Below, piece by piece: positions 33,501 through 56,908 of a stretch of DNA of 64,000 nucleotides. The translations under genes and the position numbers were made by a program. Under the pieces are notes generated by a model. That model made no database searches, was not told the DNA's origin, and was given only the letters and a program-made list of their open reading frames with translations. Source of the DNA: a virus (Duplodnaviria; Caudoviricetes); IMG/VR virus record IMGVR_UViG_3300022173_000041, positions 9,678-73,677 of that record; one strand, 5' to 3'. The number at the start of each line of letters is the position of its first letter. Within the stretch, counting starts at the first letter, position 1.

Positions 33501-33562
33501 GGTTTCCCTCTTACGTTCTTTGTGTTAAATAAACCCAGATTGTGTCACTCTCAAGGGGTCAA

Positions 33563-34069
33563 ATGGGCGTCCTTCGCAACATCAACGATGAGCGGTTTTG
33601 TCAGTTAGTGGTCTCGGGCATGGAACCGGGAGAGGCTTACAAGACGGTCGGGTATACTGCCAAGAACCCGGGTTATGCAGCCAGCCGCAAGATGGCCAAG
33701 CCCGTGGTTAGGAAGCGCATGGAGGAGCTTCTGGACGTTGGCGCCAGAAAGGCCATGCTAAGCCGCTCCATGATCCTACAGCGCATTTATGAGGACTGGG
33801 AGCTATCCCGAAAGCTGGGCCAGATGGCCAGCGCCATCTCTGCTGGCAAGCTTATGGGCATGGAGCTGCATAAGATGTTCATTGAGCGCAAGGAGATTGG
33901 CGGGCCGGGAGACTTCGACGCCAAGAGCCCTGAAGAGCTTCTTGAGTATATCAAGAAGGAACTAGGGGAGTTGGGGATGGACGCGAAGGACGTAACCAAG
34001 ACACTTGGTATAAATCTGGATGATCATCAAGCGCTTACACTAATACCGCCAGAGAAATCCAAGGTCTAA
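33563..34069 (+). CDS. terS: Terminase small subunit
   Basis: ERFCQLVV.G....EAYK.VGY......AASR....PVV.KR.EEL N-terminal HTH; AISAGKLMG; KSPEELLEYI. Confidence 0.7.
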   Translation: MGVLRNINDERFCQLVVSGMEPGEAYKTVGYTAKNPGYAASRKMAKPVVRKRMEELLDVGARKAMLSRSMILQRIYEDWELSRKLGQMASAISAGKLMGMELHKMFIERKEIGGPGDFDAKSPEELLEYIKKELGELGMDAKDVTKTLGINLDDHQALTLIPPEKSKV

Positions 34070-34386
34070 CTTTGTATAAATTCAATTGCTTTGGTTATTT
34101 CGTCTTCTTCGAAATCAATATTCCTGAGTTCTCTCAGTCTGGTTGGGTCAATATCACCACTTTCCCAACGTGGAATGAGTTCGCCAAACTCATTGATTGA
34201 TGAGCTGGTGGAAAACCAAGTCTGTATCCTTCCTGTTGGATGATCATAATCCTTTGTCACGCAGAGTTTGCCGCGAAGAGTATTATGCCAAGTTTGTTTC
34301 TGGTTAATCCAGCTTTGCATATTCTCCTGACCGGTCAAATTCCAGACACGATCAGGATCAAGCAAGAGTTCATTTTTGTAACCCAT
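34066..34386 (-). CDS. Small protein with acidic C-terminal tag (DFEEDEITKAIEFIQS)
   Basis: 106 aa. Confidence 0.7.
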   Translation of the reverse strand: MGYKNELLLDPDRVWNLTGQENMQSWINQKQTWHNTLRGKLCVTKDYDHPTGRIQTWFSTSSSINEFGELIPRWESGDIDPTRLRELRNIDFEEDEITKAIEFIQS

Positions 34387-35237: not shown

Positions 35238-36515
35238 TTACTTGTAGGGAACAGTCCTGCCATATGGCGCCTTAGCGCCACTGCCAGCCCAGTCCACCCA
35301 CACCACCGGAAAGTCAGGCTGTGGCCCAAAGCTTGAGGTATACATATCGGTCAGGAAGATACAGCCGATAACGTCTTCCATCTTGCCGATTTCTGTCATG
35401 GCGGAATTGAAATCGGTTCCACCACCACCACCAGCATTCCAGCCAATGATGTCCTCTTCTGACTTCGCTTCCAGAGTGTTCTGGATTTGTGTATCGACCG
35501 AAATCAGAGTGACGTGCGATACCAAGTCCTGATTGAGAAGGCTTGCAGCCTCTTCGCACATTTCTTGGATCATCTTCTGGCTAACTGAGCCAGACACGTC
35601 CAGACACATCACAAGCTTGTATACGTTATCGTTGCCATAACCGGGCATGTATTCGTCATTGCCCAGTCGGCGTCGATTAGGACGGGTCCACGTTCGCGTT
35701 GCCTTAGACTTGGCATCGCGAGACATATCGCGGATAAGGTCCTTCCAGTCGATCTTCTCCTTGGGGAAAAGATCACCGATCAGACGCTGGAGATTGCCCG
35801 GCAATGTACCGGGAGGAGACTTCTCCAGAGCGCTTGCGACAGTTCGCTTCCACTGCCGGTCGGCAGCTTCGCGTTCTTCGGGCGTGGTTTCGAACATGGT
35901 GCCGGGAGCTTCCCCATCACCTTCTTCGTCGCCATTGCCCTCGCCTTCACCCTCACCATCCTGATCTTCTTCTTCGTCACCTTCACCATCCTGAGGCTGG
36001 CCTTTCCCCTTTCCTTTCTGGGGTTTGCCTTTGCCTTTCTCGGACTTTCCTTTGCCGCCGTCCTTGCCTTCCTTGTCTTCCTTTTTCTGCTGCTTTTCCT
36101 CCTGCTGTTGCAGGATTTCATAGACAGCTTCGGCAGAAAGTTCGGCAAGCTTGTTATCGCGCAATGCATCACGTGGCATTGGGAAATAGTCTTCGACCAC
36201 CTTGTTGACAGGGAAGTCGCAGGCTTCATTCCACATCTTATTGTCGCGATATCGGCGCCGGGCAGGATGCATCATAGCGCAATGCAGGACGGTATGCAGA
36301 AGCACACCTTCCATGTATTTATCGTTCGCGGCATCGTCCACATATGCGGGATTGAAGAAGATATCGACCCCATCGGACCATACCGTCTTGTGAGATTTAC
36401 TCTCAACAAGATTTGCGCCAAACAGAATGGATGCAAAGAACGGATTGCGCTTTGCTACACGTTCCCGTGCAGTAAGCATTCGTCGCATTGCAGTTGGTTT
36501 CGTTATTCCAAACAT
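35238..36515 (-). CDS. DUF2201-type HExxH-like metallopeptidase + VWA domain protein
   Basis: LLHTVLHCAMMH, WNEACDFPVN, acidic linker, MIDAS-like DVSGS, GGGGTDF. Confidence 0.85.
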   Translation of the reverse strand: MFGITKPTAMRRMLTARERVAKRNPFFASILFGANLVESKSHKTVWSDGVDIFFNPAYVDDAANDKYMEGVLLHTVLHCAMMHPARRRYRDNKMWNEACDFPVNKVVEDYFPMPRDALRDNKLAELSAEAVYEILQQQEEKQQKKEDKEGKDGGKGKSEKGKGKPQKGKGKGQPQDGEGDEEEDQDGEGEGEGNGDEEGDGEAPGTMFETTPEEREAADRQWKRTVASALEKSPPGTLPGNLQRLIGDLFPKEKIDWKDLIRDMSRDAKSKATRTWTRPNRRRLGNDEYMPGYGNDNVYKLVMCLDVSGSVSQKMIQEMCEEAASLLNQDLVSHVTLISVDTQIQNTLEAKSEEDIIGWNAGGGGGTDFNSAMTEIGKMEDVIGCIFLTDMYTSSFGPQPDFPVVWVDWAGSGAKAPYGRTVPYK

Positions 36516-36533
36516 GAATTCTCCCTCTTGTTG

Positions 36534-36595
36534 TGAAGCAGATGTATTGGCGCTTCGTGCTGGGGGCGTGGGAAATCCGCCCCCAGTGTCGAAAC
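36534..36595 (-). promoter_or_regulatory. Intergenic hairpin element E3
   Basis: GUUUCG-ACA-[CUGGGGGCG..CGCCCCCAG]-CA-CGAAGC-N12-GCUUCA before AAGAGGG. Confidence 0.8.
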
Positions 36596-36609
36596 GTCAA
36601 GAGGTACCG

Positions 36610-37656
36610 TCAGACACCCTTGGACGCCTGCCCTTCGATCAGCAAAGCGGCGAGCGCTTCGTTGGTCTTCAGGGACTTGTCGCGACCCATGGCATCGGTA
36701 ACGCACATGGAGGCAACATCCGGTGACATACGTCCCAGATACTTTGCGAACGCGGCGGCATTCTTGGCCGTCAGGTTGCGCGCGATGGTACCAGCCATCA
36801 GATACTGGAAGTGAGCGTCACCGGGCATTTTGGCCTTCATCGGGTCAGCCAAGATGTCTGCGATCTTCGGCAGACCAGCCGCAAGCCGGTCCAAGAAAGC
36901 CGCAAACTGCCTTGAGAAGCCCTCACCCAGAATAGCCAGCGCGGCATTCTCCAAGACACCCTTCAGTGCCTTCGGGTCCATACCAGACGCCTCGGTGTCG
37001 CGCAGAACCTTGTTGAAGTTCTCCAGCGAGCGGGGCGTAGGAAAGGACGGATGATTGACATCGACCTTGTGGATCAGTTCAGGACGCAACTGGAGAAACG
37101 CAATCAGGCGCTTGTCCCAGCCCCACAGCTTGGTCTTTTCAGTGAAGCCGATTTCATCGACCTCGACCGTAATGTGGGCCATGCGGTTTTCCAGAGGCTT
37201 CAACATCTTGTTGTCGCCGCCTCCATCCTCACGGGTGTTTGAGCCCAGAATGATCCGGTTTTTCTTCGGAAGCGGATACCCACCGCACGAACGGTCCAGA
37301 ACCAACTGATAAGACATCTGCTGGAGCTGTACGTTCGCATGACCGAATTCGTCAAAGAACATGACGTGCATTTCGTCATCGTCCTTCGGAACGAACGCGG
37401 GCCGGGTCCAATGGGTAGACATTTCCTCGCGGTTGATCAGCGGCATACCGGTGCCGTCCACAATATCCTTTGTAGAAAGCCGGATGTCGTGCAACTGAGA
37501 TTTGGCGCCAAAGTCCGTTCGGATTTTGGTCATGATCTCAGAGTTGATCACCGCTGACTTGCCGACGCCGGTCGGTCCCTTGATCATGACCGGAATATCC
37601 GCATGGATCAGGGGATAGACAACGTTAGCAAGTTGGGTAATTTTGCACTTCAACAT
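36610..37656 (-). CDS. MoxR-like AAA+ ATPase
   Basis: GPTGVGKS, DIRLS, FFDEFG, NTREDGG, LENRM, FPTPRS. Confidence 0.85.
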   Translation of the reverse strand: MLKCKITQLANVVYPLIHADIPVMIKGPTGVGKSAVINSEIMTKIRTDFGAKSQLHDIRLSTKDIVDGTGMPLINREEMSTHWTRPAFVPKDDDEMHVMFFDEFGHANVQLQQMSYQLVLDRSCGGYPLPKKNRIILGSNTREDGGGDNKMLKPLENRMAHITVEVDEIGFTEKTKLWGWDKRLIAFLQLRPELIHKVDVNHPSFPTPRSLENFNKVLRDTEASGMDPKALKGVLENAALAILGEGFSRQFAAFLDRLAAGLPKIADILADPMKAKMPGDAHFQYLMAGTIARNLTAKNAAAFAKYLGRMSPDVASMCVTDAMGRDKSLKTNEALAALLIEGQASKGV

Positions 37657-40877: not shown

Positions 40878-41010
40878 GGAGCACTAGCGCTCCTTGATGC
40901 AATCCAGAATGTTACAAGTCCTCGCCTGCCATTTCGTTGGCCATACTGAGAAACTAGAAAAATCAGCATGTTGACTATGCACATTGCGTCTAGTTGACAC
41001 TGGATTGCAC
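40878..41010 (-). ncRNA. Structured intergenic RNA closed by a long-range 10-bp stem
   Basis: TGCAATCCAG (40898-40907) is complementary to CTGGATTGCA (41000-41009); internal hairpins; GGAGC/GCTCC hairpin before the RBS. Confidence 0.5.
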
Positions 41011-42299: not shown

Positions 42300-42390
42300 G
42301 ATAAGTTTCCCTCTTATCGGCAAAATTGCCTAATAGCTTGCCCTGCTAGCCCCTTGTGAGGGCTAATCAGAGCAAGCCAATTGGTAGTTT

Positions 42391-42428
42391 AGAAGAGGAA
42401 AAGGAAATGAGGGGCCGCTAAGCCCCTC
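42391..42428 (-). terminator. Rho-independent terminator upstream of the leftward early genes
   Basis: GAGGGG/CCCCTC stem followed on the minus strand by ATTTCCTTTTCCTCTTCT. Confidence 0.6.
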
Positions 42429-43190
42429 CCATGTTATGCCAAGTGCAATGCTTGATAATCATCCTAGACTATCAACGAAGCGATGGTTTGCCCCGCCCGG
42501 CTTACAAGCTATTGTCTGGTTAGCGTCACGCCTTAAGCGCTAAGCCTGCCATATCGTCGCCTTGCGGCTGATAATCAGGAGAAGGTCGCGCCCGCCATGG
42601 TTACTTTCGGACCGCTACACTGGGACGCTATGCCCATATCGCGAAAGGCTTGATGCCTGTCCTATCCTAGCCACGGTCCAGAGTTGGCACGTTGCTTGCG
42701 AAATTATGGTAAGTCTCAAACGGTTATCTGTCCCATTTGTCCGGTCCTCCGGATATCAGTAGCCACTCGCTATGGCCCCGATTTGCCAGCGCCTTGTCAG
42801 GCTGGCGGCGTATTCTCAGAAGCGTCTATCTCAGTACCTCAGTTCGTTTCAGTCCTCAGAACATAAGGCTTGGTACCAATCCAGTTAGTGGGTCTAACGC
42901 ATGGCTGATATGCATTCCCGCATACCTCCATTGCCAAGCCTCTATCCATGCCAAATGAAAAACCGCAACGTTCCCCAATGGATAGACGCGCTCCACAAGC
43001 CCCTAGGAAGCCCATAGAGAGGGATAAACAAGACAGACTGACCTAGATCGCCCTAAAGAAATATCGCCCTCACAGCCTTACGCCCGCCATATGCACGATA
43101 CCGGGCAGATGGACCATAATCCTAGCGATAGGAATACAAGGCAGAAAGGCTAGGAAAACCGCCTCTCGTCGCACGTTCCCCTGATACCCA

Positions 43191-43608
43191 CATGCGAACC
43201 ATTCGCATGTGGAACAGCCCCTAGAACGCGATACGACGCGCGCCCATGAGCGATCATGTCGGCGCTACCTAGCATCGCCCGAAATGCCCAACTCACCCAT
43301 GGCCACGCCACGCAATGTTGCACCGCAACACCTATGCACCTAGCGCATAGCTCTGCCTAGATTGTGCCACAGTTCCAATGCGTTAGACGCATAGCTCTGG
43401 TATGCATAAACCGCATGGCTACCTGCGAACCACTCGCAACAAGGACCATGCCAAGCCCCCCTCCCCCCATGCATAGCTGGTATGCGTATATGCATGGCTC
43501 ATCCACATGCGAACCATTCGCATCAAGCATCGTGCCACTAGCTATGCACTGCACGCACTGCACCTATGCGCTCCACGCATGGCTAGGTGCTAATGAGAAT
43601 CATTCGCA
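43191..43608. repeat. Four copies of a 7-1-7 inverted repeat TG(C/A)GAAY-C-AYTCGCA
   Basis: Copies at 43193, 43424, 43508, 43594. Confidence 0.65.
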
Positions 43609-43718
43609 AGAAGGGACCCGACCGGGTGGGGGGCCGCTATCGGAGAGGCCGGGCCGGGGCTGAGCCTTCTCTGCCCTCTCTCCTTTATGAGAAATTTTAG
43701 ATCAACCCCCATTGTATT

Positions 43719-43777
43719 GTAACGCCATGTAACACATCTTGTAACGCAACGTAACGCAAACTGTAACGCGGTGTAAC
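43719..43777 (+). repeat. Six helically phased GTAAC repeats
   Basis: Starts at 43719, 43729, 43741, 43751, 43763, 43773. Confidence 0.85.
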
Positions 43778-43792
43778 AGGGGTTTAGAGGTA

Positions 43793-44032
43793 ATGGATTA
43801 CGAGAAGGAAGTGGAGCTTATAGCTCAGCTACGAAGGGATATGCCTCGTAATGGGGTGGTGATGTCGTTGTGTGATTTTGCGGAAAAATGTTTGGGGTCG
43901 AAACCCAAGATGTCTGAGGTTGAGCGGCGCCAGAAGAATGCTGAGCGGGTGAAGCGGTGGCGACGGAGTAAGGGTCTTGTCGGGGGAGAGGTTATTGAGA
44001 TTTCTACAAATCCGTTTGAGGGGGACACGTAA
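43793..44032 (+). CDS. Small basic protein, possibly DNA-binding
   Basis: RRQKNAERVKRWRR; first rightward gene. Confidence 0.65.
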   Translation: MDYEKEVELIAQLRRDMPRNGVVMSLCDFAEKCLGSKPKMSEVERRQKNAERVKRWRRSKGLVGGEVIEISTNPFEGDT

Positions 44033-44298
44033 TGTCTTTGGCTTCACCGCCTGAGATTTGGGGTCAGGTTCATGGGCGGTTTCAGGAGATTTATGCTGCT
44101 GACAATGTTGCTGGGAACCGTATTGCGGAATTGTTTAGGGCTGCTGTGCTGGCTGACAAGAAGAACGAGCGTTACCATCATGAGATTATGTTGGAGGCGA
44201 TAGAGGCTGTGTGCCCGATCCGGGATGGGTTGGCTGATGCAGCTGACGAGTACGAGGAGTATTTGCGGGATGCAGAGGTAATGGAGGGGTTGGACTGA
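44032..44298 (+). CDS. Tagged small protein (EYEEYLRDAEVMEGL)
   Basis: 88 aa; YHHEIMLEA; coupled at both ends. Confidence 0.75.
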   Translation: MSLASPPEIWGQVHGRFQEIYAADNVAGNRIAELFRAAVLADKKNERYHHEIMLEAIEAVCPIRDGLADAADEYEEYLRDAEVMEGLD

Positions 44299-44564
44299 TG
44301 CCAGTGTTATCACCACCGGGGGACTGGAGGAGGGCATACAACCGTTTTATGGAGCTGCCTGATGATGTCCGTGAAGAGGTCTCGGCTTGTTATCGCGAGT
44401 TAACGGATACTCCAGCGAACCTTCAGAGGATGAACCATGAGCTGATGCTGGAGGCTCTGAGCCTTGTTATTATTCCGCCCGAAAATATCAGTGGGCTGGA
44501 TGCTGCGGCGATTGAGTACGATGCAGCGATGCTGGAGCTTGAGGTAATGGAGGGGTTGGGCTGA
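44298..44564 (+). CDS. Tagged small protein (EYDAAMLELEVMEGL)
   Basis: 88 aa; NHELMLEAL. Confidence 0.75.
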   Translation: MPVLSPPGDWRRAYNRFMELPDDVREEVSACYRELTDTPANLQRMNHELMLEALSLVIIPPENISGLDAAAIEYDAAMLELEVMEGLG

Positions 44565-44848
44565 TGATTAGTGACGATCTAGCCGATATCCGGAAGCGGA
44601 TACTCAACAGCAACGAATATATAAAAATTGTTAGGAAGTTGGTTGAGGACGCGGATAAAGCGAACAGCCTTCATGGGGGAATTACCGCGTCTGAGGTTAA
44701 CGACATTATGGAAAAGGCGCTGACCGGGTTTATGGCAGCCGCTTTTAACAGATCGTCTGCGGAGGAGAGGGCTGTGGAATACGACGAGGCGATGCGAGCG
44801 CAGGATATTATAGAGGGATTAGGCAATGCCGAGAACATCAAGTCCTAG
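44564..44848 (+). CDS. Tagged small protein (EYDEAMRAQDIIEGL)
   Basis: 94 aa. Confidence 0.75.
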   Translation: MISDDLADIRKRILNSNEYIKIVRKLVEDADKANSLHGGITASEVNDIMEKALTGFMAAAFNRSSAEERAVEYDEAMRAQDIIEGLGNAENIKS

Positions 44849-45092
44849 TGACTGGGAGCCGCCGTTTCAGGCAGCGATGGCTATCCGGAGGGATGATTTC
44901 AATACGTGGGTTAAGATCAGGGACGCCTACGCAGCTAAGTGCCGGTTGGATGTAAACAACGAAAAATACCATCACGAGCTGATGTGGGAGACATTGAACG
45001 AATATTCGGCTGGGGTTCCGACCGGGTTTGAAGTAGCCGCGCTGGAATATGACGAAGCCATGCGCGCTGAGAAGATCATGGATGGGTTGTGA
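44826..45092 (+). CDS. Tagged small protein (EYDEAMRAEKIMDGL)
   Basis: 88 aa; YHHELMWETL. Confidence 0.75.
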   Translation: MPRTSSPSDWEPPFQAAMAIRRDDFNTWVKIRDAYAAKCRLDVNNEKYHHELMWETLNEYSAGVPTGFEVAALEYDEAMRAEKIMDGL

Positions 45093-45307
45093 TGACGGAG
45101 ACATGGAACTGCGATGGATGCGGTACCCATCGCAAGAGATTGGGGAGCGGGGATTATTGCCGGGATTGCGTGAAGAGGTTCAGCGCTGCCAGACGATACA
45201 ATCGGCGCCAAGAGCAGTTTGAGACTGAGCTTCTTACAAAGCAGATTGATACGAGGGATTACGAGGACGCGATGCGAGCCGAAGAAATCATGGAGGGGCT
45301 GAAATGA
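45089..45307 (+). CDS. Tagged small Zn-ribbon protein (DYEDAMRAEEIMEGL)
   Basis: CDGC...CRDC; 72 aa. Confidence 0.75.
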   Translation: MMTETWNCDGCGTHRKRLGSGDYCRDCVKRFSAARRYNRRQEQFETELLTKQIDTRDYEDAMRAEEIMEGLK

Positions 45308-45426
45308 AATTAGATGTGGTTGGCGTCTTGATGGTCTTAACCGCGCTACTCGCCAGCGCCTACATAATTACCTTGGCAGATAGATCGTATTCAGAACGAC
45401 GCATGGAGATAAGTAAATGCCGTTAG
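45304..45426 (+). CDS. 40-aa membrane peptide
   Basis: ATGA overlap; N-terminal TM. Confidence 0.5.
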   Translation: MKLDVVGVLMVLTALLASAYIITLADRSYSERRMEISKCR

Positions 45427-45482
45427 TGGCGTCGGCGGGAACAAAGCCAAATAATAAACACAATTAAGGGGGAGTGTGCGTG

Positions 45483-45767
45483 ATGAATGGAATGTCTGAT
45501 CGCTGGTTTACCCTGTGCAAACAGTACAAGAACTATTCGGTCGAAATCAGGAACCGAATAGACGATATCTATGAACCGGAACGCGAGGAAATTCACAAAC
45601 TCTATGAGACCGGCGGAAGAAGCGCGAGGTTCGATCTGTACTCAAATGCTTTGGAGAAAGCCATCTGGTCAGTAACCGGTACTGGACCTGAAGCCGTATT
45701 CGGTACTTCTCATGAAGAATACGAAGAAGCAATGCGAGCTGAAGAACTCATGGAGGGCTTGAAGTGA
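45483..45767 (+). CDS. Tagged small protein (EYEEAMRAEELMEGL)
   Basis: 94 aa; GGGGAG RBS. Confidence 0.75.
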   Translation: MNGMSDRWFTLCKQYKNYSVEIRNRIDDIYEPEREEIHKLYETGGRSARFDLYSNALEKAIWSVTGTGPEAVFGTSHEEYEEAMRAEELMEGLK

Positions 45768-46027
45768 CAGTGAGAGAGCCAAGCGAGAAGTGGGGGCGGG
45801 CAGTGACCCGGTACAGCGCCCTACCTACAATTCTCCAGCACAAAATTGCAGATGCATACAAGCCATACCATGACGGCAATGATGATCATTTCTATGACAA
45901 GTGCGCCGACAATCTGGAAGCCGCAATCAATGCTCACTTTGGCGAGCTGATAGTATCTTTAACGCAAGAAGCCGACGCATACGATGAAGCTATGCGAGCT
46001 GACACCATCATGGAAGAACTAGGGTGA
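45764..46027 (+). CDS. Tagged small protein (AYDEAMRADTIMEEL)
   Basis: 87 aa; GTGA overlap. Confidence 0.75.
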   Translation: MTVREPSEKWGRAVTRYSALPTILQHKIADAYKPYHDGNDDHFYDKCADNLEAAINAHFGELIVSLTQEADAYDEAMRADTIMEELG

Positions 46028-46031
46028 TACC

Positions 46032-46268
46032 GTGGCTAACGAGGGACTGAGTAGGTGGTATCTGGACGGATACCGCGCCCGCATGAAGAGAACCCCAAGA
46101 GAGAACAATCCAAGACATAGATACCGTGGAAAACCTAACTCAGTGAAGGCTGTTCGTTGGGATCAGGGCTGGCAAGCCGCTGACGATCATCTCCAGCCAG
46201 TTATTAAGTGGGATCAAGAACAGGATATTATCGATGCCCTCCAAGAAGAAGCGACTTCCTATACTTGA
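46032..46268 (+). CDS. Small protein with ribosome-modulation-factor-like GY...NP...W.QGW pattern and acidic tail
   Basis: YLDGYRAR...NP...RWDQGWQAA. Confidence 0.55.
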   Translation: MANEGLSRWYLDGYRARMKRTPRENNPRHRYRGKPNSVKAVRWDQGWQAADDHLQPVIKWDQEQDIIDALQEEATSYT

Positions 46269-46587
46269 ACCAATTCCGGCGCCGGATGGAAAGACCAAAG
46301 CTTTCTTGAAGGGATGGGATGCCAGAATGGCTAACAAGCCACGTTCTGTCGCGCCTGAATCAACTATTTACAAAAGGGTCAGGGTGGGTGGAATGTTAAC
46401 TTGGGAATTTAATAATGATACTAGGGTGAGGTCATCCCGCGTCAGGAAACAATGGATCACTGGATACACCTCTGCATCCCGCGAGATAGGCAAGCAGCAC
46501 AGAGCAATCGCTCATGCCGCTGAAACCAAGCGCATGAATGAAGAGAACGATATCTTTGCCGAGCTTGGAGAGGAATTCGCTGCCTGA
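46234..46587 (+). CDS. Small protein with GW.AR...QWITGY pattern and acidic tail
   Basis: 117 aa; resembles the upstream ORF in pattern. Confidence 0.55.
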   Translation: MPSKKKRLPILEPIPAPDGKTKAFLKGWDARMANKPRSVAPESTIYKRVRVGGMLTWEFNNDTRVRSSRVRKQWITGYTSASREIGKQHRAIAHAAETKRMNEENDIFAELGEEFAA

Positions 46588-46647: not shown

Positions 46648-46917
46648 ATGTCGAAAGAAGAAGAGAAGAAGATCATCACGCTCAAGCTGGATCAGGCTGA
46701 GCTGGCTGTTCGTATTGTCGAGGCCATGACGGATACCGCGCGACCGGAGGGACGTACCCCGGAAGAGTGTCTTGAAGACATCTCCGAGGAAGGAAGACAG
46801 TCTGCCCTGAATGCTGCCTTCGCGGCTGCCACTTACTTTGTGGAAGTCATGAAGGGGGAAATCCCCAACGTCACCAGCGAGAAGATCAAAAAGAGCGACG
46901 GTCGTTGGTCTAACTGA
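46648..46917 (+). CDS. Hypothetical protein
   Basis: 89 aa; AAGAGGG RBS. Confidence 0.7.
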   Translation: MSKEEEKKIITLKLDQAELAVRIVEAMTDTARPEGRTPEECLEDISEEGRQSALNAAFAAATYFVEVMKGEIPNVTSEKIKKSDGRWSN

Positions 46918-47189
46918 TGGGCTCCAAGGGATCATCTTCCGCTGTGTCCACTAGCAATGCTCAAAGCCTATTCCAGACAGTGGAAGGCTGGCGCGAATAC
47001 TGCCGTCGTGTGGAGCTGCTACACAACATGCCAACTGATGGCCAGAGGCAGGCCATCATCAATGAAATACACCAGCAGGAAAACGGCCATCTTTCTGGCC
47101 TTATTAACGCGCAAGAATACCAAGACATCATGAAAGCCAACGAGCTTTATGAAAAGCTCATTAACGAGGGAAACGAAAATGACGAGTAA
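46917..47189 (+). CDS. Tagged small protein (EYQDIMKANELYEKL)
   Basis: 90 aa; TGATG coupling. Confidence 0.65.
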   Translation: MGSKGSSSAVSTSNAQSLFQTVEGWREYCRRVELLHNMPTDGQRQAIINEIHQQENGHLSGLINAQEYQDIMKANELYEKLINEGNENDE

Positions 47190-47487
47190 GGAAGAATTCG
47201 AAGCGATGGCGAAGCTTGGTGGCCTTTGTGATCCCAAGGTCCCGCAGAGCGCGCGGGACGCCACCTTCGCGATGATGAAGATCATCCAAGACAGCCAGAA
47301 CCCGGCAGATGTCTCTTTGGCCGTCTGTATGGGTCTGTCTTATGCCTTGGCGGTATCCAAGGACGAAACCAAGACCATGGAGGTAATCGTAGCGACTGCC
47401 CTCCAGATGAAAGAGGAACTTCTGAAACTGAAGCCCACCATCGACAAGCTCTTCTCTGAGATGGTCAAGAAGGGAGAAGTCCAGTGA
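47179..47487 (+). CDS. Hypothetical helical protein
   Basis: 102 aa; GAGGG RBS. Confidence 0.65.
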   Translation: MTSKEEFEAMAKLGGLCDPKVPQSARDATFAMMKIIQDSQNPADVSLAVCMGLSYALAVSKDETKTMEVIVATALQMKEELLKLKPTIDKLFSEMVKKGEVQ

Positions 47488-47960
47488 AAAGCGCAAAGCA
47501 AATGCTGGATCACATGGCTGGTTTCGCCAAGCACATCTTCGATAGCACTTCAGATCATGAAGTGATCCCGATGTGGGTGGTCGAAAGCGAAACCGAAGTG
47601 GTGCCGATACTGGCGCCATTCTCCGGTGATGACGAGAAGAACGCTTCAATTGCATTCGTCCGCGAGAAGGCCAAAAGCATGAATGCCAATGTCGTTGGCT
47701 TCATGTGCGAGGCTTGGGTGGTCGAGAAGATCGGCGCCGATATCGATGAGGCTGAGAAGATCATCCCAAGTGAACACGATGACCGACGTGAGATTATCCA
47801 AATCCACGCGGAAGATCGTGACGGCAACGTGGCGATTGGTTCCTATTACATTCTTCGCCCCGAGCATGGAACGCCAAAGCTTTCTCCCTTCAGGTTATAC
47901 GATGATGACATGAAGATTGGTGGCCGCTTCACGTCAATTCTGGAAAAGGTAAAGCATTAA
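47484..47960 (+). CDS. Hypothetical protein
   Basis: 158 aa; GFMCEAWVV...PSEHDDRREII. Confidence 0.7.
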   Translation: MKSAKQMLDHMAGFAKHIFDSTSDHEVIPMWVVESETEVVPILAPFSGDDEKNASIAFVREKAKSMNANVVGFMCEAWVVEKIGADIDEAEKIIPSEHDDRREIIQIHAEDRDGNVAIGSYYILRPEHGTPKLSPFRLYDDDMKIGGRFTSILEKVKH

Positions 47961-48249: not shown

Positions 48250-48530
48250 TGAAAGCTGGACCACAACAGGACCTGAAGGCGTTCTCCTGCCCTGTGTGCG
48301 AGAAGGTGCTGGACGCTTGCTCCGTTATCAACGAAGATGGCAGTAAGGCGTTGCCAGCCAAGGGTGACGTGTCGGTGTGCGCCTACTGCGGCAACCTGAT
48401 GATCTTTGATGGCAAAAGCCTCGAACCGAGAGAGCTGACCCAGAAAGAACACGCCACCGTCATGGCCGATCCTTACTTTCACAAGAGCATGGAAGTGATC
48501 GATGTTTTCAAAAAAAGGTTTCGGCATTGA
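48249..48530 (+). CDS. Zn-ribbon protein
   Basis: CPVC...SVCAYCG. Confidence 0.7.
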   Translation: MKAGPQQDLKAFSCPVCEKVLDACSVINEDGSKALPAKGDVSVCAYCGNLMIFDGKSLEPRELTQKEHATVMADPYFHKSMEVIDVFKKRFRH

Positions 48531-48546
48531 TTATAAAATTCAATCA

Positions 48547-48759
48547 ATGGAAGATAAGCAAAGAATTCAGCGCATCCTGATCGAAATCGAGCAAGATCGC
48601 GCAAGGAATAAAAAAGAAACCGCCGCCAAGATGGAGATTGAGCTTAAGCTTTCTCTTCTGGAAAAAGAGTATCGCGAGGCTCTAAAGGCTCAAGAGATCA
48701 TGGACGGACTTGATGAAGAAGAAACCACGCCGCCTAGCCCCTCCGAAACTCCCAAGTAA
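48547..48759 (+). CDS. Tagged coiled-coil protein (EYREALKAQEIMDGL)
   Basis: 70 aa; start uncertain. Confidence 0.6.
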   Translation: MEDKQRIQRILIEIEQDRARNKKETAAKMEIELKLSLLEKEYREALKAQEIMDGLDEEETTPPSPSETPK

Positions 48760-49169: not shown

Positions 49170-49619
49170 ATGCCCGAGAGTTACCTCCAGCAGCTTCAAA
49201 AAGAGCGCAAAGCCAGACTTAAACGCTTCTCAGATGCCTCAGTCGAAAAGCCACCACCGCCCAAGCAGGTTGTTACAAATCCTACAATCGAAGAAGAGAA
49301 CCCCACCGAAAGCATCGAACAGGTTCTGACCCGGCTAGAGGGGAACTTCAAAACTATCTTCAAGGAGGTTTGTAGATATTACAATATCTCCATGCTGGAC
49401 GTGATGTCTTCGCGCCGCACACTAAAGATAGCCATGGCCCGCCATGTTGTTGCCTACATCGCCAGTCAACATACCAACCTGTCCCTGTCTCAAATCGCAC
49501 TTAGATTGGGTCGGGACCGCAGCACCGTAAGCCACGCGATATCGCGGGTGAAGGAGCTGATGCATACTGATAGGTTGCCAGCAGACATCGCCACCATCAA
49601 GCAAAGGCTTGGGATATGA
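49170..49619 (+). CDS. Protein with DnaA domain-IV (C-terminal HTH) only
   Basis: VCRYYNIS..DVMSSRR....ARHVVAY...TNLSLSQIA..LGRDRSTVSHA. Confidence 0.85.
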   Translation: MPESYLQQLQKERKARLKRFSDASVEKPPPPKQVVTNPTIEEENPTESIEQVLTRLEGNFKTIFKEVCRYYNISMLDVMSSRRTLKIAMARHVVAYIASQHTNLSLSQIALRLGRDRSTVSHAISRVKELMHTDRLPADIATIKQRLGI

Positions 49620-49927
49620 GCGCCTTTCAAATCGTCGTATGGGGATTTTTTGCTCTAGGAATTCTTGGCGTATGCATTGCCTTTACTAAACTGGCGATAG
49701 ACTATCGGCGCCATCTCAGGGAAGAGCAAGAACATGAACGCATTATGTCTGAGATGCGAGACCGTGTTTTCGAGCAGCATGAAGCCAAGAGAATAAAGAA
49801 AGAAGAGAGCGACCGGCTGATAGCCAAACGTCAGTTGGATAGAATGAACTACCGAGAATACACAGACGCCATAAAAGCAGAAGAGATTATGGCAGCTTTA
49901 GAGAGGGAACAAAATGTCAAAGGATAA
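49616..49927 (+). CDS. TM-anchored tagged protein (EYTDAIKAEEIMAAL)
   Basis: N-terminal TM, coiled coil. Confidence 0.7.
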   Translation: MSAFQIVVWGFFALGILGVCIAFTKLAIDYRRHLREEQEHERIMSEMRDRVFEQHEAKRIKKEESDRLIAKRQLDRMNYREYTDAIKAEEIMAALEREQNVKG

Positions 49928-50803: not shown

Positions 50804-50979
50804 GAGACCCACAAGGACGCCCGATTAGGCGACCAGAGCTGAAGCGATATAGCCGCGCCAAATTCGTGGAGAGCGGCTATATCATTCCTCGCCTGCAAGA
50901 CAAGAAGGTAGATACCCATGCTGTTGGCTTCACGGCTGAACTTCTCGCCCAGTCATATGAAGAGGGCGAGGGGGATTAA
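50800..50979 (+). CDS. Small hypothetical protein (59 aa)
   Basis: TTGA overlap with the upstream stop; open frame to TAA. Confidence 0.35.
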   Translation: MRDPQGRPIRRPELKRYSRAKFVESGYIIPRLQDKKVDTHAVGFTAELLAQSYEEGEGD

Positions 50980-51436
50980 GGGGCTCTACAGGGCCAAGGC
51001 TCTGGAGCCCCTCACTTCCGGTAATGGTATTGACCAAACACCCAGCCCGGGTACAGTAGCCTCCAGTAGTCCATATGGAGGCTTAGTGACCATGAGCAAC
51101 AACGCCTATACCGGGTACACCGCAACTCTTCAAAACCTTCAGGCTGTTTATCCCTACAATGGGTCCGTCGCCACCGCTGGGTATCAGCAGGCATATGTGA
51201 CTGGAACTACCGCCGCTGGAACCGTAGGAGGGCCGTTCCCTGCCACATGGAGCGGCTGGGTTACGGCGCCTAATACCAACGCGGTACTGGGCCAAGCCGG
51301 AAGTTTCCCCGGGGCATACATTCTGCCAGCAGAGCCTATCTACACCATGAACCCGCCCTCCCGCGAGGACTTCACGGAAGACGAGATTAACCGGGCGCTG
51401 GAAATCATTGACGAGCTGGAAGTCCGGTATGCCTAA
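50918..51436 (+). CDS. Low-complexity protein with F-type tag (DFTEDEINRALEIIDEL); true start probably downstream
   Basis: Thr/Gly/Ala-rich body. Confidence 0.55.
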   Translation: MLLASRLNFSPSHMKRARGIKGLYRAKALEPLTSGNGIDQTPSPGTVASSSPYGGLVTMSNNAYTGYTATLQNLQAVYPYNGSVATAGYQQAYVTGTTAAGTVGGPFPATWSGWVTAPNTNAVLGQAGSFPGAYILPAEPIYTMNPPSREDFTEDEINRALEIIDELEVRYA

Positions 51437-51839
51437 AGGCGTCCCCGGTCCTGTCTACACCAACGAGCATCAGGCGCTTCACCAGCGCCTGCGTTGGCTC
51501 CGACAGAACATGCAGCCCTACATGACCCAAGAACAGCTCGCCACAGCCTCTGGGGTGAGCCTCTCATTCATTAAATCGTATGAGGTTGGCGGTGTCGCCC
51601 ATATGAGTACCGACACCATCAGGAAGCTCGCCCACGGCCTTGGCTGCAAGATGACTATTCGCCTGATGCGAGTAAGTGATCGAGAGATAATCGACTGCCT
51701 GACGGAAGGTCCACCTTTGCCCGCCGTCCCAAAACGTCCGGATAAAATTTCGGTGGAAGCCCGAACGCGGGCCTTATCACGCGAACGTTCTCCTTGGTCA
51801 GAAGCTCGCCAGCAGCGATTGGCGCGACGACGTAAATAG
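51429..51839 (+). CDS. XRE-family HTH regulator
   Basis: LRWLR...MTQEQLATASGVSLSFIKSYEVG...STDTIRKLAHGLG. Confidence 0.8.
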   Translation: MPKGVPGPVYTNEHQALHQRLRWLRQNMQPYMTQEQLATASGVSLSFIKSYEVGGVAHMSTDTIRKLAHGLGCKMTIRLMRVSDREIIDCLTEGPPLPAVPKRPDKISVEARTRALSRERSPWSEARQQRLARRRK

Positions 51840-52707
51840 AACGCCGGAACTTCAAATTAGGCTCTTGGACTTTGGAGAAAGATGGTTGGGTAGCTTGCCA
51901 AGCTGCTTTGCAGGAAGCTGCTAGTTCAGCAAATTCCAAGGGCTCAAGGCTAAAAGCACTATCAGGACCCCCATCAGACCGACGTAGCGTAAGATGCTTT
52001 TCAATGATAGTGGCTCCAAACGCCACGGCAGCAACGCTAACCCCCACACCAAGAGTATGATCGCTAAGGCCGACCACATGCCTACCTCCCATCAGTTCGC
52101 TGAGTGGACCCAAGGCCGGTAAGTTGGACTGGTCTGCTGGCGCCGGATAGGCGCTGACGCAATGCAACAGAGCGATATCCTCGTTGCCTGCGCGCCCCCT
52201 AACAGTCCTTACCGCCGTGCAAATCTCCGTCGTGTTTGCCATCCCGGTGGATATGATGACGGGACGCTTCGTTTCGGCAATTCGTGCGAGTAGAGGAACA
52301 TCAGTAATTTCAAAGCTCGCCACCTTGTAAGCGTTAGGAGAAAGATGCTCCAAGAGGCTGACCGAGCTTTCATCGAATACGGATGCGAATATTTCCAGCC
52401 CGCGAACAGTACGAGCATAATCAAATACTCGCTCCATCCACTCAAAAGGAGTATGCGCTTCCGCATAGAGATCATAAAGCGTTCGCCCAGCCCACGGTCC
52501 TTCCTTGATGAGAAAGTCATCGCTATCGCTCTTCATGGTCATGGTATCAGGCGTGTAGCACTGAAGTTTTACAGCGTCGGCGCCAGCGAACTTGGCTTCG
52601 TCAATCAGCCTGAAGACATTGTTGATGTCGCCAAGATGATTACCGCTCAGCTCCGCTATCAGGTACGGCGGCTGACTTATCGAGATTTCGCGGTTTCCAA
52701 TCTTCAT
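51655..52707 (-). CDS. pseI: Nonulosonic acid synthase (NeuB/PseI family) with SAF domain
   Basis: LIAELSGNHLG, ADAVKLQCYTPDT, YKVASFE, LHCVSAYP, GLSDHT, IIEKH, FRRSIYV, RVIRPAFGLPP. Confidence 0.9.
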   Translation of the reverse strand: MKIGNREISISQPPYLIAELSGNHLGDINNVFRLIDEAKFAGADAVKLQCYTPDTMTMKSDSDDFLIKEGPWAGRTLYDLYAEAHTPFEWMERVFDYARTVRGLEIFASVFDESSVSLLEHLSPNAYKVASFEITDVPLLARIAETKRPVIISTGMANTTEICTAVRTVRGRAGNEDIALLHCVSAYPAPADQSNLPALGPLSELMGGRHVVGLSDHTLGVGVSVAAVAFGATIIEKHLTLRRSDGGPDSAFSLEPLEFAELAASCKAAWQATQPSFSKVQEPNLKFRRSIYVVAPIAAGELLTKENVRVIRPAFGLPPKFYPDVLGRRAKVDLPSGSRLSLDHLLASGE

Positions 52708-52885
52708 CTGCCATAGCCCTCATCAGTCTGGACACTTCAAGGTCCATTATTAAAATCTTGCCCAGCGCCTCTTTGGTGGCCTTGGGATTAGCCTTCATGG
52801 CTATCTTCAGGATATCCATCCAGTTCTGGTTATTGTGAGCGCGAACGCGACCTATCTGGTCAAGAATTTGATCGTCTGTTGTCAT
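52640..52885 (-). CDS. Small helical protein in the sugar locus
   Basis: ILDQIGRVRAHNNQNWMDILKIA; ATGA coupling. Confidence 0.6.
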   Translation of the reverse strand: MTTDDQILDQIGRVRAHNNQNWMDILKIAMKANPKATKEALGKILIMDLEVSRLMRAMADEDWKPRNLDKSAAVPDSGAER

Positions 52886-54000
52886 CTGAAGATTTTCCTT
52901 AATCTTGCTATGTGTTCTGGCTTGATGTCGTATGAGCAAACCTCAATCATAATAAGTCTATTCAGCGACTTGTATGCTTCACCCTCAATTAGCTCATACA
53001 TTCTGTCTTGAGTTAACCAAGTATTTGAAAGTGGCTTATCCAGAAGATTGCCATCGTATCCAACCTCAACAGGTATGGTGAGGTTCTGATTTCTGAACAT
53101 CTGGACCATTGATGTCGCTGAGTAGTCTATATTAACAATAAGAGGAAGAGCGTAGTAGGAATGCTCGCAGTCAGTCCTGACTTCCATCTTTTTGAAATAG
53201 GTTCCCTCAACAGCTTCTATAATACCGCGAGCCACTTCCTGCCTGCCAGCAACAATCTTCGGAAGCTTCTTGAGCTGCTCGCGAGCGATGGCTGCGGTAA
53301 TCTCGGTCATTCTTAGATTAAGCCCCGGCGCTGCCTGCCCACGGCACTCACCATGGTTAATGGCGCCTGCCAGCTTTACATAAAGCCCTTCATCATTGTC
53401 GTTAACAACGCAGACGCCACCTTCACCGGTCTGGATGTGCTTGTGGACATTAAGGGAGAACACCCCGATATGACCGATGGTCCCGGTGTATTTACCGTTC
53501 TCCTTAGCCATGATGGCTTGAGCGTTGTCTTCGATCAGGTAGATGCCGCGACTATCGCAGATGCTGCGTAGCTGATGCAGCTTGGCTGGATGCCCGAACA
53601 TATTGGTAGCAATGACCGCCTTGGTGCTTTCTGTGATCTGATTAGCCACGTCAGAAGGAGATAGACAGAAAGTATCAGGCTCAATGTCTGCCAGAATGAT
53701 GGTGGCGCCAAGAACGGCAGGAGCGCATGCAGTGGCCGACATGGTGAAGTAAGGGACAATCACTTCGTCCCCGGGACCAACGCCAATAGCCATACAGGCA
53801 GCCAGAAGACCTGAGGTAGCCGAGTTGCATGGTATGGCGTTGTCTACCTTGAAAAACTTCTCCCACTCAGTCTGCAAACCGCGAACCTCAGGGCCAGCAC
53901 CCATCTTGCTTGCTACATATCCAGATAGGTTGCCGCTGCGGATAACCCGCAAAACAGCCGCCTCTTCTTCTTTCCCGATAGTGTTGAATTTACCGATCAT
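52882..54000 (-). CDS. DegT/DnrJ/EryC1/StrS PLP aminotransferase (PseC-like)
   Basis: NSATSGL, FTMSATA, IEDNAQA, FSLNVHKHIQTGEGG, GLNLRMTE. Confidence 0.9.
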   Translation of the reverse strand: MIGKFNTIGKEEEAAVLRVIRSGNLSGYVASKMGAGPEVRGLQTEWEKFFKVDNAIPCNSATSGLLAACMAIGVGPGDEVIVPYFTMSATACAPAVLGATIILADIEPDTFCLSPSDVANQITESTKAVIATNMFGHPAKLHQLRSICDSRGIYLIEDNAQAIMAKENGKYTGTIGHIGVFSLNVHKHIQTGEGGVCVVNDNDEGLYVKLAGAINHGECRGQAAPGLNLRMTEITAAIAREQLKKLPKIVAGRQEVARGIIEAVEGTYFKKMEVRTDCEHSYYALPLIVNIDYSATSMVQMFRNQNLTIPVEVGYDGNLLDKPLSNTWLTQDRMYELIEGEAYKSLNRLIMIEVCSYDIKPEHIARLRKIFR

Positions 54001-54914
54001 AGGTAGCTCTTCAGTTCTTCGACCGTCAGGAATTTGCTGTTGTTGATGCTGGTATACTCTTGTGGATTTGTTATGTTGGACACGCCATCGCTGTTGATTA
54101 TATACCGGTCCCATGCTTCCAGCGCTCCTCTAGCTTCTTCCTCCGTCATGAGGATTTCGTGAAGTTTCTCGCCCGGCCTGATGCCAACGATGGTCTGCGG
54201 CAGTGTCGGCGCCATAGCTCTGGCTAGATCGACTACGCGCATGGATGGAAGCTTCGGGATGAAAATCTCCCTTCCCTTCATCATTCCTAGCGAGGAAAGA
54301 ACAAGATTTACAGCTTCGTCCATCGTCATCCAGAACCGCGTCATGCGCGGATCAGTGATGGGAATGCTTTCGCCTAGCTCAACAAGTTCACGGAATAGAG
54401 GAACAACAGAGCCACGGCTTCCGACGACATTACCGTACCGGCAAACGCTGTAAATACAGCGCCCAGCACTAACGTTATTGGCTGCAACAAAGATTTTCTC
54501 TGCGGCCAACTTTGTAGCGCCATATAGGTTAAGTGGAGAGACAGCCTTATCAGTGCTAAGCCCAATAACCCGAGTAACACCAGCAGCAAGGCTAGCACGA
54601 CAGACATTTTCGGCTCCATGAATATTGGTAAGCACACACTCAAACGGATTGTACTCAGCCGTAGGAACGATCTTAAGCGCCGCAGCGTGGATGACCGTAT
54701 CCACACCATGCATAGCCATTTCAAGCCTAGCCTGATCCCGCACGTCACCGATGAAGAACCGCAAGCGATCATCCCCGAACTTGCGCGCCATCTCCTCTTG
54801 AAGATGTTCTCCGCGAGAGAAGATGACGATGCGACTTGCCAAGCGTTCTTCCAGAAGAAGCTTAGTCATGGCCTGACCGAATGAGCCAGACCCGCCTGTA
54901 ATCAGGACCTTCAT
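53997..54914 (-). CDS. pseB: UDP-GlcNAc 4,6-dehydratase (inverting)
   Basis: ITGGSGSFG, FSRGE, HAAALKIVPTAEYNPFE, STDKAV, YGATK, RYGNV.GSRGSV, GIRPGEKLHE. Confidence 0.9.
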   Translation of the reverse strand: MKVLITGGSGSFGQAMTKLLLEERLASRIVIFSRGEHLQEEMARKFGDDRLRFFIGDVRDQARLEMAMHGVDTVIHAAALKIVPTAEYNPFECVLTNIHGAENVCRASLAAGVTRVIGLSTDKAVSPLNLYGATKLAAEKIFVAANNVSAGRCIYSVCRYGNVVGSRGSVVPLFRELVELGESIPITDPRMTRFWMTMDEAVNLVLSSLGMMKGREIFIPKLPSMRVVDLARAMAPTLPQTIVGIRPGEKLHEILMTEEEARGALEAWDRYIINSDGVSNITNPQEYTSINNSKFLTVEELKSYL

Positions 54915-56908
54915 CGGACCCCCTTGGTAGTTACCAGCCCGCCATCCAAATGCTCTAGGATGTCGGACCCGACAGCTTCTTTGATAACCTTCAGCGTACT
55001 GTACCAAGCGTTTAGGATGCGACTACACTCAGACCACTTGTGAGCATAACTCAGATTATGACTACCGATGATCAGAACGCCATTCTTGGCCATCTCCTGA
55101 ATGAACAGGGTCTGGATGCCATTGTTCTTGAACTTGATGCGGTTCAACTGAGGTGGGCCATATAGACTAATGTACTCAGACAGACCGGCATCTTCTATTA
55201 GGTTTTCGATATCAACCTCTAGGGTCATACCAATATCTAACAGATGTTCAGGAACATTCTCTCGCTCCAACTTCTCTATAGTGGCAATGGCTGCTACGAT
55301 AGAAAGCGTCTCGCCAAAGAAAGTGCCTGAGTAGCTGATCTCAGTCATCTTGCTCATATACTTCTCAAGCCCAACCAGAGCTGAGATAGGCATGCCGTTA
55401 GCCATGGCTTTGCCAAAGCAAGCCAGATCAGGCACCACGTCATGGACGGCGCCAAGACCGCCAAGACCGCAACGGAAACCGGTTATGATCTCGTCAAAGA
55501 TCAGAATGCTGCCGTTATCAGCAGTGTTCTGCCTGAAGTTTTGAAGCTGTTCCTTGGTGAAGAACTCAGGTTCTATGATGACAGCAGCAATCTCATTCGG
55601 CCTAACATCAAAGATGTTGCCCATCTTGTCTGGCTTAAAGGAAAGATCAGACACGGCGCCGGGGATGCCATTGTTGCGGTCAGTAACGCCCATGCTCCAG
55701 TCGTGCCAGCCGTGATAGCCATAGACAACTACCTTGTCTCGACCAGTTACATGACGCGCGAGGCGCACAGCAGCCGTAGTGACATCGCTACCGTTCTTGC
55801 CGAACCGCACCATCTCCGCGCACGGAATGTGCTTGCTCAGAAGCGCAGATAGCCTTTCCTCAATAGGTGTCGCAAGACTAAAGCTAATACCATTGCTAAG
55901 CTGAGCGCGTATAGCATCGTCCACGTCTGGGTCACGATAACCAAGAATATTAGGTAAAAGCCCACCAACGCAGTCGATATAATCATTCCCATCAACATCA
56001 AATACATAGGCGCCGTCCCCATGGGTAACAAACAGGGGAGCTGCCCCCTTTGGGAACATTAGCTTACTTTTACTGAAAGTCTGAGCCCCAAGAGGAATGA
56101 TATGCTCTGCTTTGTCGAGCATGACCATGGATGAGCTGTAAGACCGCTTCACGTCACCTTCAGCACCGAGAGCTTCATAGAAGCGCTCATTGCGGGAGAA
56201 CTTCTCATTCAGCTTCCTGATCCATGGCTCCTTATCAAGGATTGACAGGATTTGTAGGTATCCGGGTGGCTGGCCACTATCGCCAAGCCTCTTCGCGACT
56301 TCCTGTATGAAGTCATAATCCTCCGGACTATCGAGAACCCATCTCTCCCTAACCAGAGTAGGGACACCGCACACAAGGTTAGCCGCAGGAAAACGTTGAC
56401 GGTTCCGCACCATAAAACGAGTAACAGTATCCCGATCAGTCGGGCGAACAGCTTCGCGGTTTGCAATTTCAAGTGCGTCTTTTGTGAAAACCTCGACATC
56501 CAACCCGTCTGGATATGATGGAGGATCAGTGTTGGTAGCATATGCAGCATCCTTCATAGCGCGCAGTCGTATGACTTCGCCAATAACAGTGGGATCAAGG
56601 AGGGGGCAATCGCCCGTGAGCCTGACAACGATGTCGGCGCCAGTGGCGCTCAGCGCCGCCATATAGCGGGAGAGTACATCCGTCTCCGAGCCTCTGACGA
56701 CACTGATGCCACGCTGCTCGCACCATTGGGCGATCATGTCATCACCTACCTCAGTCGAGGTGGCGACGATAACCTGATCTACACCGGGGGCTCGCCGGGC
56801 AGCCTCTACCACCCATTGGATGGTTGGTCTACCCGCAATATCCATCATTACCTTGCCCGGGAGGCGGGTGGAACCCATACGGGCCTGAACTACTGCAACT
56901 GTCTTCAC
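54911..56908 (-). CDS. Fusion of SpsF/PseF-like cytidylyltransferase and class-III aminotransferase
   Basis: QARMGSTRLPGKV, RLTGDCP; C-half GAQTFSK, RFGKNGSD, FDEIITGFR, CFGKAMANG. Confidence 0.85.
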   Translation of the reverse strand: MKTVAVVQARMGSTRLPGKVMMDIAGRPTIQWVVEAARRAPGVDQVIVATSTEVGDDMIAQWCEQRGISVVRGSETDVLSRYMAALSATGADIVVRLTGDCPLLDPTVIGEVIRLRAMKDAAYATNTDPPSYPDGLDVEVFTKDALEIANREAVRPTDRDTVTRFMVRNRQRFPAANLVCGVPTLVRERWVLDSPEDYDFIQEVAKRLGDSGQPPGYLQILSILDKEPWIRKLNEKFSRNERFYEALGAEGDVKRSYSSSMVMLDKAEHIIPLGAQTFSKSKLMFPKGAAPLFVTHGDGAYVFDVDGNDYIDCVGGLLPNILGYRDPDVDDAIRAQLSNGISFSLATPIEERLSALLSKHIPCAEMVRFGKNGSDVTTAAVRLARHVTGRDKVVVYGYHGWHDWSMGVTDRNNGIPGAVSDLSFKPDKMGNIFDVRPNEIAAVIIEPEFFTKEQLQNFRQNTADNGSILIFDEIITGFRCGLGGLGAVHDVVPDLACFGKAMANGMPISALVGLEKYMSKMTEISYSGTFFGETLSIVAAIATIEKLERENVPEHLLDIGMTLEVDIENLIEDAGLSEYISLYGPPQLNRIKFKNNGIQTLFIQEMAKNGVLIIGSHNLSYAHKWSECSRILNAWYSTLKVIKEAVGSDILEHLDGGLVTTKGVR

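Follow-up and report, generated by a model that had tools for sequence, protein, structure and literature searches.

A C-terminal peptide selected at the protein level is shared by ten small proteins of one operon in a Caudoviricetes phage

The recruitment of diverse cargo proteins through one common docking peptide is an established principle, known from the capsid-targeting sequence (CTS) of phage T4, from encapsulin cargo peptides and from the MIM/MIT pair of the ESCRT-III system. Unrelated proteins are also docked on a ring-shaped hub through a common C-terminal peptide in the case of T4 gp43, gp33 and gp55 and of the bacterial beta-clamp motifs. The cargoes of the T4 CTS are virion proteins; the CTS itself is an N-terminal peptide of ~10 residues that interacts with the scaffolding core and is cleaved off by the prohead protease (PMC3012670). 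The MIM helices of ESCRT-III recruit the AAA+ ATPase Vps4 through its N-terminal MIT domain (PMC6393862), and encapsulin cargo peptides are short, extended, Gly/Ser/Leu-rich and C-terminal, and bind the inner face of an HK97-fold shell (PMC7925596). Here, we describe a C-terminal peptide (the tag) shared by small proteins encoded in one operon of the phage genome IMGVR_UViG_3300022173_000041 (Duplodnaviria; Caudoviricetes). The source record is a 73,677-bp virus genome with the IMG/VR status of complete, with direct terminal repeats, and the 64,000-nucleotide stretch analysed (hereafter the window, to which positions refer unless a relative is named) corresponds to its bases 9678–73677.

Seven open reading frames (ORFs) that an earlier note, made from the DNA sequence alone, had reported as an array ending in one motif are all present on the + strand and all end in it, with independent E-values against a tag profile of 4e-5 to 6e-9. 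The set is larger than that note had recognised, as a profile search of all six-frame ORFs of the whole genome retrieved ten tag copies, all on the + strand between 44032 and 49927 and each no more than 15 residues from the C-terminus; the further carriers are ORFs 46917, 48502 and 49616 (ORFs are named here by their start positions; Table 1), and no tag was found outside this operon by the same search. The tag has the consensus A-A-D-E-Y-[DE]-E-A-M-R-A-[EQ]-E-I-M-E-G-L and a predicted helix of ~15–18 residues, with an invariant Tyr, small residues spaced A-x-x-A and a net charge between −2 and −5. Its apolar surface is broad (Y2, A5, M6, A8, I11, M12, L15) and presents no single clean face, and the Asp before the helix and the Gly-Leu at its end can be read as N-cap and C-cap, respectively.

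The tag is a portable module selected at the protein level. Pairwise comparison of seven tags revealed differences at 18%, 18% and 59% of codon positions 1, 2 and 3, respectively, with different codons used for 48% of identical residues. Nei–Gojobori analysis of nine tags, a set including those of ORFs 48502 and 49616, gave proportions of nonsynonymous (pN) and synonymous (pS) differences of 0.24 and 0.84 (pN/pS 0.29), in contrast to 0.60 and 0.77 (pN/pS 0.77) for the aligned bodies of five paralogues. As synonymous sites are saturated and amino acids are kept, the conserved entity is the peptide; the opposite outcome, DNA better conserved than protein, which the earlier note had named as grounds for abandoning a protein tag, was not observed. 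These values bear on the proposal that the motif is a nucleic-acid or translation signal, whether a ribosome-binding site with translational coupling, a recombination junction or a nascent peptide acting in the ribosome. For 31 of 39 tagged genes, the following gene does have its start codon between −10 and +20 nt from where the tag ends, and GGAGG is often supplied by the final tag codons, so that the earlier caveat about an overlap with the ribosome-binding site of the following gene was correct. Its weight is nevertheless minor, since the last four tag codons are themselves synonymously saturated (pS 0.90, pN 0.15), the first eleven, which lie outside any ribosome-binding site, show the same degree of constraint (pN/pS 0.34), and several tags lack GGAG in their last codons. 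With saturation extending over the whole tag (pS 0.83–0.90) while amino acids are kept, we consider a signal of this kind extremely improbable.

The bodies preceding the tag comprise one family and a series of other proteins. Five bodies in the window (ORFs 44032, 44298, 44826, 45474 and 45764), rather than the three paralogues counted previously, form a hitherto unnamed three-helix family: body-only BLASTP matched ORFs 44032, 44298, 44826 and 45764 mutually (E 1e-8 to 6e-5) and joined ORF 45474 to them through ORF 45764 (E 7.5e-4). A body-only profile recognised the five at E 1e-16 to 4e-23, values that, unlike those of BLASTP, are not independent because the profile was built from an alignment containing them. 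This 'W...YNHE...tag' family is defined by an N-terminal Trp, a central NHE-type helix, a ~60-residue three-helix body, a linker and the tag. ORFs 44564, 45089, 46917, 48502 and 49616 do not conform to this definition; their bodies comprise two orphans, one of them helical, besides the zinc ribbon, a probable coiled coil and a membrane-anchored protein. The first two ORFs were not detectably related to the family once the tag was removed (E 0.4); ORF 45089, with two CxxC pairs, is the zinc-ribbon-like body already noticed. Among 49 tagged bodies from eight loci, 28 were recognised by the body-only profile, and the 21 that were missed include membrane-helix proteins and one protein with two CxxC pairs. 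In the relatives, the tag also ends beta-rich bodies that by eye look SH3-like, a body that by eye looks like ribosome modulation factor (Rmf; L006 10293–10544, bearing the full tag) and a second membrane-protein family.

This distribution could also arise if the tag had no common function and its helix were the conserved core of fast-evolving paralogues, spread by gene-fragment shuffling within arrays. The membership of 28 of the 49 bodies in one family and the tandem arrangement of the arrays, with 5 to about 14 tags among relatives, are as such an origin would predict. Purifying selection is, however, also evident in a tag set that includes unrelated bodies (ORFs 48502 and 49616), the tag is retained across four or five loci in orthologues of tagged proteins from outside the family, and the tag helix, although no other part of the structural model is packed less well, is the best conserved part of the family. 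Given these observations, we give this explanation little credence.

The structural model was obtained with AlphaFold2 for ORF 44826 from a 32-sequence family alignment. Residues 1–61 were predicted as a three-helix bundle with a predicted local distance difference test (pLDDT) score of 94–97, as opposed to only 52–57 for the linker (residues 62–69) and the tag helix (residues 70–87). The linker varies between 7 and 15 residues across the family and the tag columns are its best conserved (2.75 vs 1.52 bits per column), although the tag helix is not docked on its own body in the model. Selection on the tag relative to the bodies, the variable linker and the undocked helix agree with the earlier view of the tag as a separable module. 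No structural relative of the three-helix bundle was identified by Foldseek against PDB and BFVD at E ≤ 0.001, and the best match of a wide VIA-align search (Z 7.0) was under the chance level for helical bundles.

A conserved helix left undocked on its own body suggests that the tag binds something else, and we favour, with a probability of roughly one half, a portable docking helix read by one putative common partner, the binding to which we infer. In this reading, small accessory proteins of a probably early operon would each present the tag on a flexible C-terminal linker, and the tag, folding as it binds, would connect a wide variety of them to a single shared receptor surface. The docked set would comprise the diversifying three-helix family, the zinc ribbon, the probable coiled coil and the membrane-anchored protein, and, in relatives, beta-rich and Rmf-like-looking bodies as well. 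A receptor addressed by a dozen proteins is expected to be multivalent or processive; candidates for it are a host hub, the conserved AAA+ ATPases of the phage, and its MoxR-like ATPase together with the vWA/metallopeptidase protein. Several observations weigh against this docking-helix reading. The tags do not exceed shuffled tags in hydrophobic moment at 100 degrees, contrary to the earlier description of the helix as amphipathic, and the low pLDDT of the tag may reflect missing information rather than real detachment. The notion of different cargoes holds for the bodies that lack detectable mutual relation, but roughly half of the tagged proteins are paralogues belonging to a single family and the sharing of the tag is partly plain common descent. 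Moreover, the AlphaFold model of a beta-rich tagged body (L014 899–1150; 5 sequences) had a pLDDT of 40 and was unusable, so that the term 'unrelated fold' for the beta-rich class reflects sequence features only.

The same structural features can be interpreted as self-association, in which tags would zip together or insert into the three-helix body of another member, forming mixed assemblies anchored in the membrane through the member with a membrane helix. The A-x-x-A small residues and the broad apolar surface suit tight helix–helix packing, a three-helix bundle could in principle take a fourth helix, and both membrane-anchored tagged proteins and a natural two-tag protein exist. The latter (L007 6521–6970), an orthologue of ORF 49616 with a basic linker of ~30 residues between its two tags, provides a natural test case for tag–tag pairing. 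Self-association nevertheless appears unlikely, as the net charge of each tag would lead to tag–tag repulsion and AlphaFold left the tag undocked on its own three-helix body.

The exposure of the tag on a flexible linker in the model would equally suit a degron or timer, by which an AAA+ protease or unfoldase of the host or the phage would remove or remodel early proteins on schedule, and three AAA+-type ATPases are encoded in the phage genome, including one beside a second block of tagged genes. However, no protease domain was found beside the AAA+ ATPases, the tag bears no likeness to ssrA-type ends, and tails of 8–18 residues are tolerated, unlike in degrons that depend on a free C-terminus. 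The tag lies 0–18 residues from the C-terminus in all 39 genes examined, the one exception being the additional internal copy in L007 6521–6970; 14 of the 39 have tails of 4–18 residues, which rules out a free-C-terminus (ssrA-like) degron, and degradation or timing in any form is an improbable role. As 13 of these 14 tails are overlaps with the next gene, we read the tag as the functional end of the protein and the tail as a by-product of tight gene packing.

The second block contributes to a further, related motif (type A: an acidic run preceded by an aromatic residue and followed by I-x-x-A-x-x-I-I), which ends five further small proteins of the phage, four in this block and one encoded by the last-but-one gene of the tagged operon. 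Orthologues of the latter (ORF 50918–51436) in L007, L008 and L016 are hybrids with a type-A first half and a second half of the main type (type B), so that the two types look like variants of one motif. In L014, main-type tags were observed on beta-rich bodies at the position equivalent to the type-A ORFs. ORF 33542–34069 (+), inside the span of the second block, was not included in the set and has a sub-threshold match to a terminase small subunit. A more specific proposal is that type-A and type-B tags are ligands of a phage remodelling machine (an AAA+ ATPase or the MoxR-like/vWA pair) and that the small proteins, a dozen or more and interchangeable, are adaptors, each of which would deliver its own host target, such as a defence protein, to the one machine; we consider this distinctly unlikely.

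Loading into the procapsid for co-injection, which had been suggested for the tag, has a precedent in the T4 CTS, a short conserved peptide on highly diverse internal proteins (PMC3012670), and the capsid interior is multivalent. The fit to the locus is poor. The tagged operon is non-structural and situated between replication and regulation genes, one conserved tagged protein is membrane-anchored, and 8 of the 10 tagged proteins are acidic (net charge −3 to −11, pI 4.2–5.1), which is unfavourable beside packed DNA; the zinc-ribbon and membrane-anchored proteins are near neutral. Capsid targeting is accordingly judged very unlikely.

When 1.84 billion representatives were searched exhaustively with a HMMER profile, 28 further matches of 69–139 aa were obtained (E 1e-9 to 1e-3). 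Credible relatives of the family numbered 27, all metagenomic, with the N-terminal Trp, the central NHE helix and the tag in common, and a 687-aa match (P0010), repetitive and without a tag, was judged spurious. The relatives that were looked up belong to similar, syntenic phage arrays, which precede a DnaA_C gene and NeuB where the contig was long enough, and the contig of one relative measures 73.5 kb; the lineage is one of ~73-kb phages of alphaproteobacteria. The number of tags varies from five in G001 to about fourteen in L006, indicating that the tagged set expands and contracts. The distant relative G001 keeps the tag, with Ala-to-Thr and Glu-to-Met/Ile shifts, and encodes counterparts of the vWA protein (73% identity), of a 650-aa AAA+ ATPase (67%) and of a 158-aa protein from the middle of the tagged operon (44%), the vWA protein being far better kept in G001 than the accessory operon. 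The 158-aa protein is the best conserved of the operon (46–56% identity in L006–L008); it had no family match and its only ESM Atlas matches were unnamed phage clusters.

Neither the motif nor its three-helix carrier family has a Pfam, PHROG or PDB match. No family was found in Pfam-A or PHROGs at E ≤ 0.01 for a set of ten proteins comprising the seven reported ORFs, ORF 46917–47189 and the untagged 46032–46268 and 46234–46587, a set that left out the tagged ORFs 48502–48759 and 49616–49927, and a PDB sequence search returned helical noise only. Searches of the region by blastn against phage and plasmid collections found no match, word-based protein searches recovered only the proteins of the window itself or a few known relatives, the ESM Atlas held no usable match for ORF 44826, and longer, fused forms were sought and not found. 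At the DNA level, a degenerate pattern of the tag had 3 chance matches in IMG/VR and a longer pattern had none in genome or metagenome contigs. The tag profile had no full-length match in three Rhizobiaceae genomes and 301 sampled genomes of their order, the best match (E 0.046) covering 12 of 20 positions in a fast first-look search that may miss weak matches; with the tag not found in these 304 Rhizobiales-order genomes, there is no sign of host mimicry or prophage copies. A brief literature search retrieved no description of the motif or of the carrier family.

Table 1 Tagged ORFs, type-A genes and neighbouring features of the window. L006, L007, L008 and L016 are relatives of the locus.
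Feature	Position	Strand	Tag codons	Remarks
GcrA cell-cycle regulator homologue	27766–28308	+		Pfam E 1.6e-15
Second block, four small ORFs	32646–32909, 32906–33199, 33186–33500, 34066–34386	−		C-terminal type-A motif
DUF2201 metallopeptidase/vWA protein adjoining MoxR-like ATPase	35238–37656	−
Atu_At1 small RNA match	40902–41009	−		Rfam, 83 bits vs gathering score 60
Gene-free region	42330–43790			1.4 kb, between two divergent operons
Palindromic repeats	43190–43537			Inside gene-free region
TGTAAC array	43712–43779			Six copies, ~11 bp spacing
Untagged first gene of operon, 79 aa	43793–44032	+		Basic C-terminal helix; kept in L006, L007, L008
Tagged ORF 1, 88 aa	44032–44298	+	44248–44292	Three-helix family body
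Tagged ORF 2, 88 aa	44298–44564	+	44514–44558	Three-helix family body
Tagged ORF 3, 94 aa	44564–44848	+	44777–44821	Body without detectable family kinship; 8 residues after tag, overlapping next gene
Tagged ORF 4, 88 aa	44826–45092	+	45045–45089	Three-helix family body; AlphaFold-modelled
Tagged ORF 5, 72 aa	45089–45307	+	45257–45301	Two CxxC pairs (zinc-ribbon-like); non-family
Untagged hydrophobic ORF, 40 aa	45304–45426	+		Breaks up the array
Tagged ORF 6, 97 aa (94 aa from later start)	45474–45767	+	45717–45761	Three-helix family body
Tagged ORF 7, 87 aa	45764–46027	+	45977–46021	Three-helix family body
Two small basic proteins	46032–46268, 46234–46587	+		W-x-x-G-Y/W-x-A motif; degenerate acidic D-I-[IF]-x-x-L tail
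Tagged ORF 8, 90 aa	46917–47189	+	47115–47159 (diverged)	Non-family body; tail of ~ten residues; orthologues in L006, L007, L016
158-aa protein	47484–47960	+		Mid-operon
Tagged ORF 9, 85 aa	48502–48759	+	48667–48711	Charged, probable coiled-coil body; 15-residue tail overlapping next gene; orthologues in L006, L007, L008
Tagged ORF 10, 103 aa	49616–49927	+	49856–49900	N-terminal hydrophobic (membrane) helix, charged helix; 8-residue tail; kept directly after DnaA_C-type gene in L006, L007 (two tags), L008, L016
Last-but-one operon gene, 172 aa	50918–51436	+		C-terminal type-A motif
Nonulosonic-acid sugar cluster	51655–60016	−		NeuB/PseI-type synthase, DegT aminotransferase, cytidylyltransferase-aminotransferase fusion

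The genomic setting of the tagged operon is that of a phage encoding tail-fibre and lysis proteins, a large terminase, the recombination proteins ERF, YqaJ and RusA, and a DnaA_C-type helix-turn-helix protein whose gene precedes ORF 49616. Given the known range of the GcrA family, the GcrA homologue points to an alphaproteobacterial host, in agreement with the match to a Rhizobiales small RNA family and with the closest bacterial relatives of the phage NeuB, which are from Ciceribacter and Rhizobium (38% identity). The small RNA match sits within a leftward small-gene cluster of the phage. The nearest deposited phage by terminase is MW202675 (46% identity), the first 50 kb of which contain no tag. 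The two small basic proteins that follow ORF 45764 have bodies that, by eye, recall ribosome modulation factor.

The tagged genes start directly after the gene-free region, which contains palindromic repeats of the ATGCGAACCATTCGCAT type and is possibly an origin or control region; relative L006 has a gap of equal length at the same place. The TGTAAC array immediately preceding the first operon gene looks like an operator or iteron array for a DNA-binding protein. The flank of a gap between divergent operons is the usual site of early or accessory genes, and the tagged operon, from its position beside such a gap, is probably early.

No block of unexplained genes in virology is larger than that of the small early phage proteins, and in this phage about one fifth of the accessory genes bear one address label, retained under selection as the bodies diverge. 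Fused to a neutral carrier, the 15-residue helix should serve as a single bait for a common reader, which would place ten or more orphan proteins in a shared pathway in one step. If the tags were ligands of a phage remodelling machine and the small proteins its adaptors, the locus would represent a MIM/MIT-like or adaptor/unfoldase system so far undescribed in phage, and potentially a general, overlooked way for phages to organise their 'dark matter' early proteins.

The phage tag resembles the T4 CTS in that one short conserved peptide is found on diverse, fast-changing, clustered small phage proteins, the peptide acting as a putative address and the body as payload. In contrast to the CTS, to which it has no sequence likeness, the tag is C-terminal, acidic and predicted to be helical, belongs to a non-structural operon and is also carried by a membrane-anchored protein. 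The resemblance to ESCRT-III lies in small helical paralogues with a flexible, accessible C-terminal helix, predicted here, in a phage that encodes conserved AAA+ ATPases. The MIM1 consensus (acidic, x, x, L, x, x, R, L, x, x, L, basic) does not match the tag consensus (32 family members, 12 tags), and the tag, unlike MIM, is also found on non-homologous bodies. With encapsulin cargo peptides, the tag shares a short C-terminal peptide on a flexible linker and unrelated cargoes, and the HK97 fold is common to the encapsulin shell and tailed-phage capsids, but the tag differs in being predicted helical and acidic. Clamp-binding tails are short, hydrophobic and placed at the very end of the chain, whereas the phage tag is a 15-residue acidic helix that tolerates tails. 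Of these systems, the MIM/MIT pair offers the closest working analogy and the T4 CTS the closest phage precedent for a tag that has the defining features of neither.

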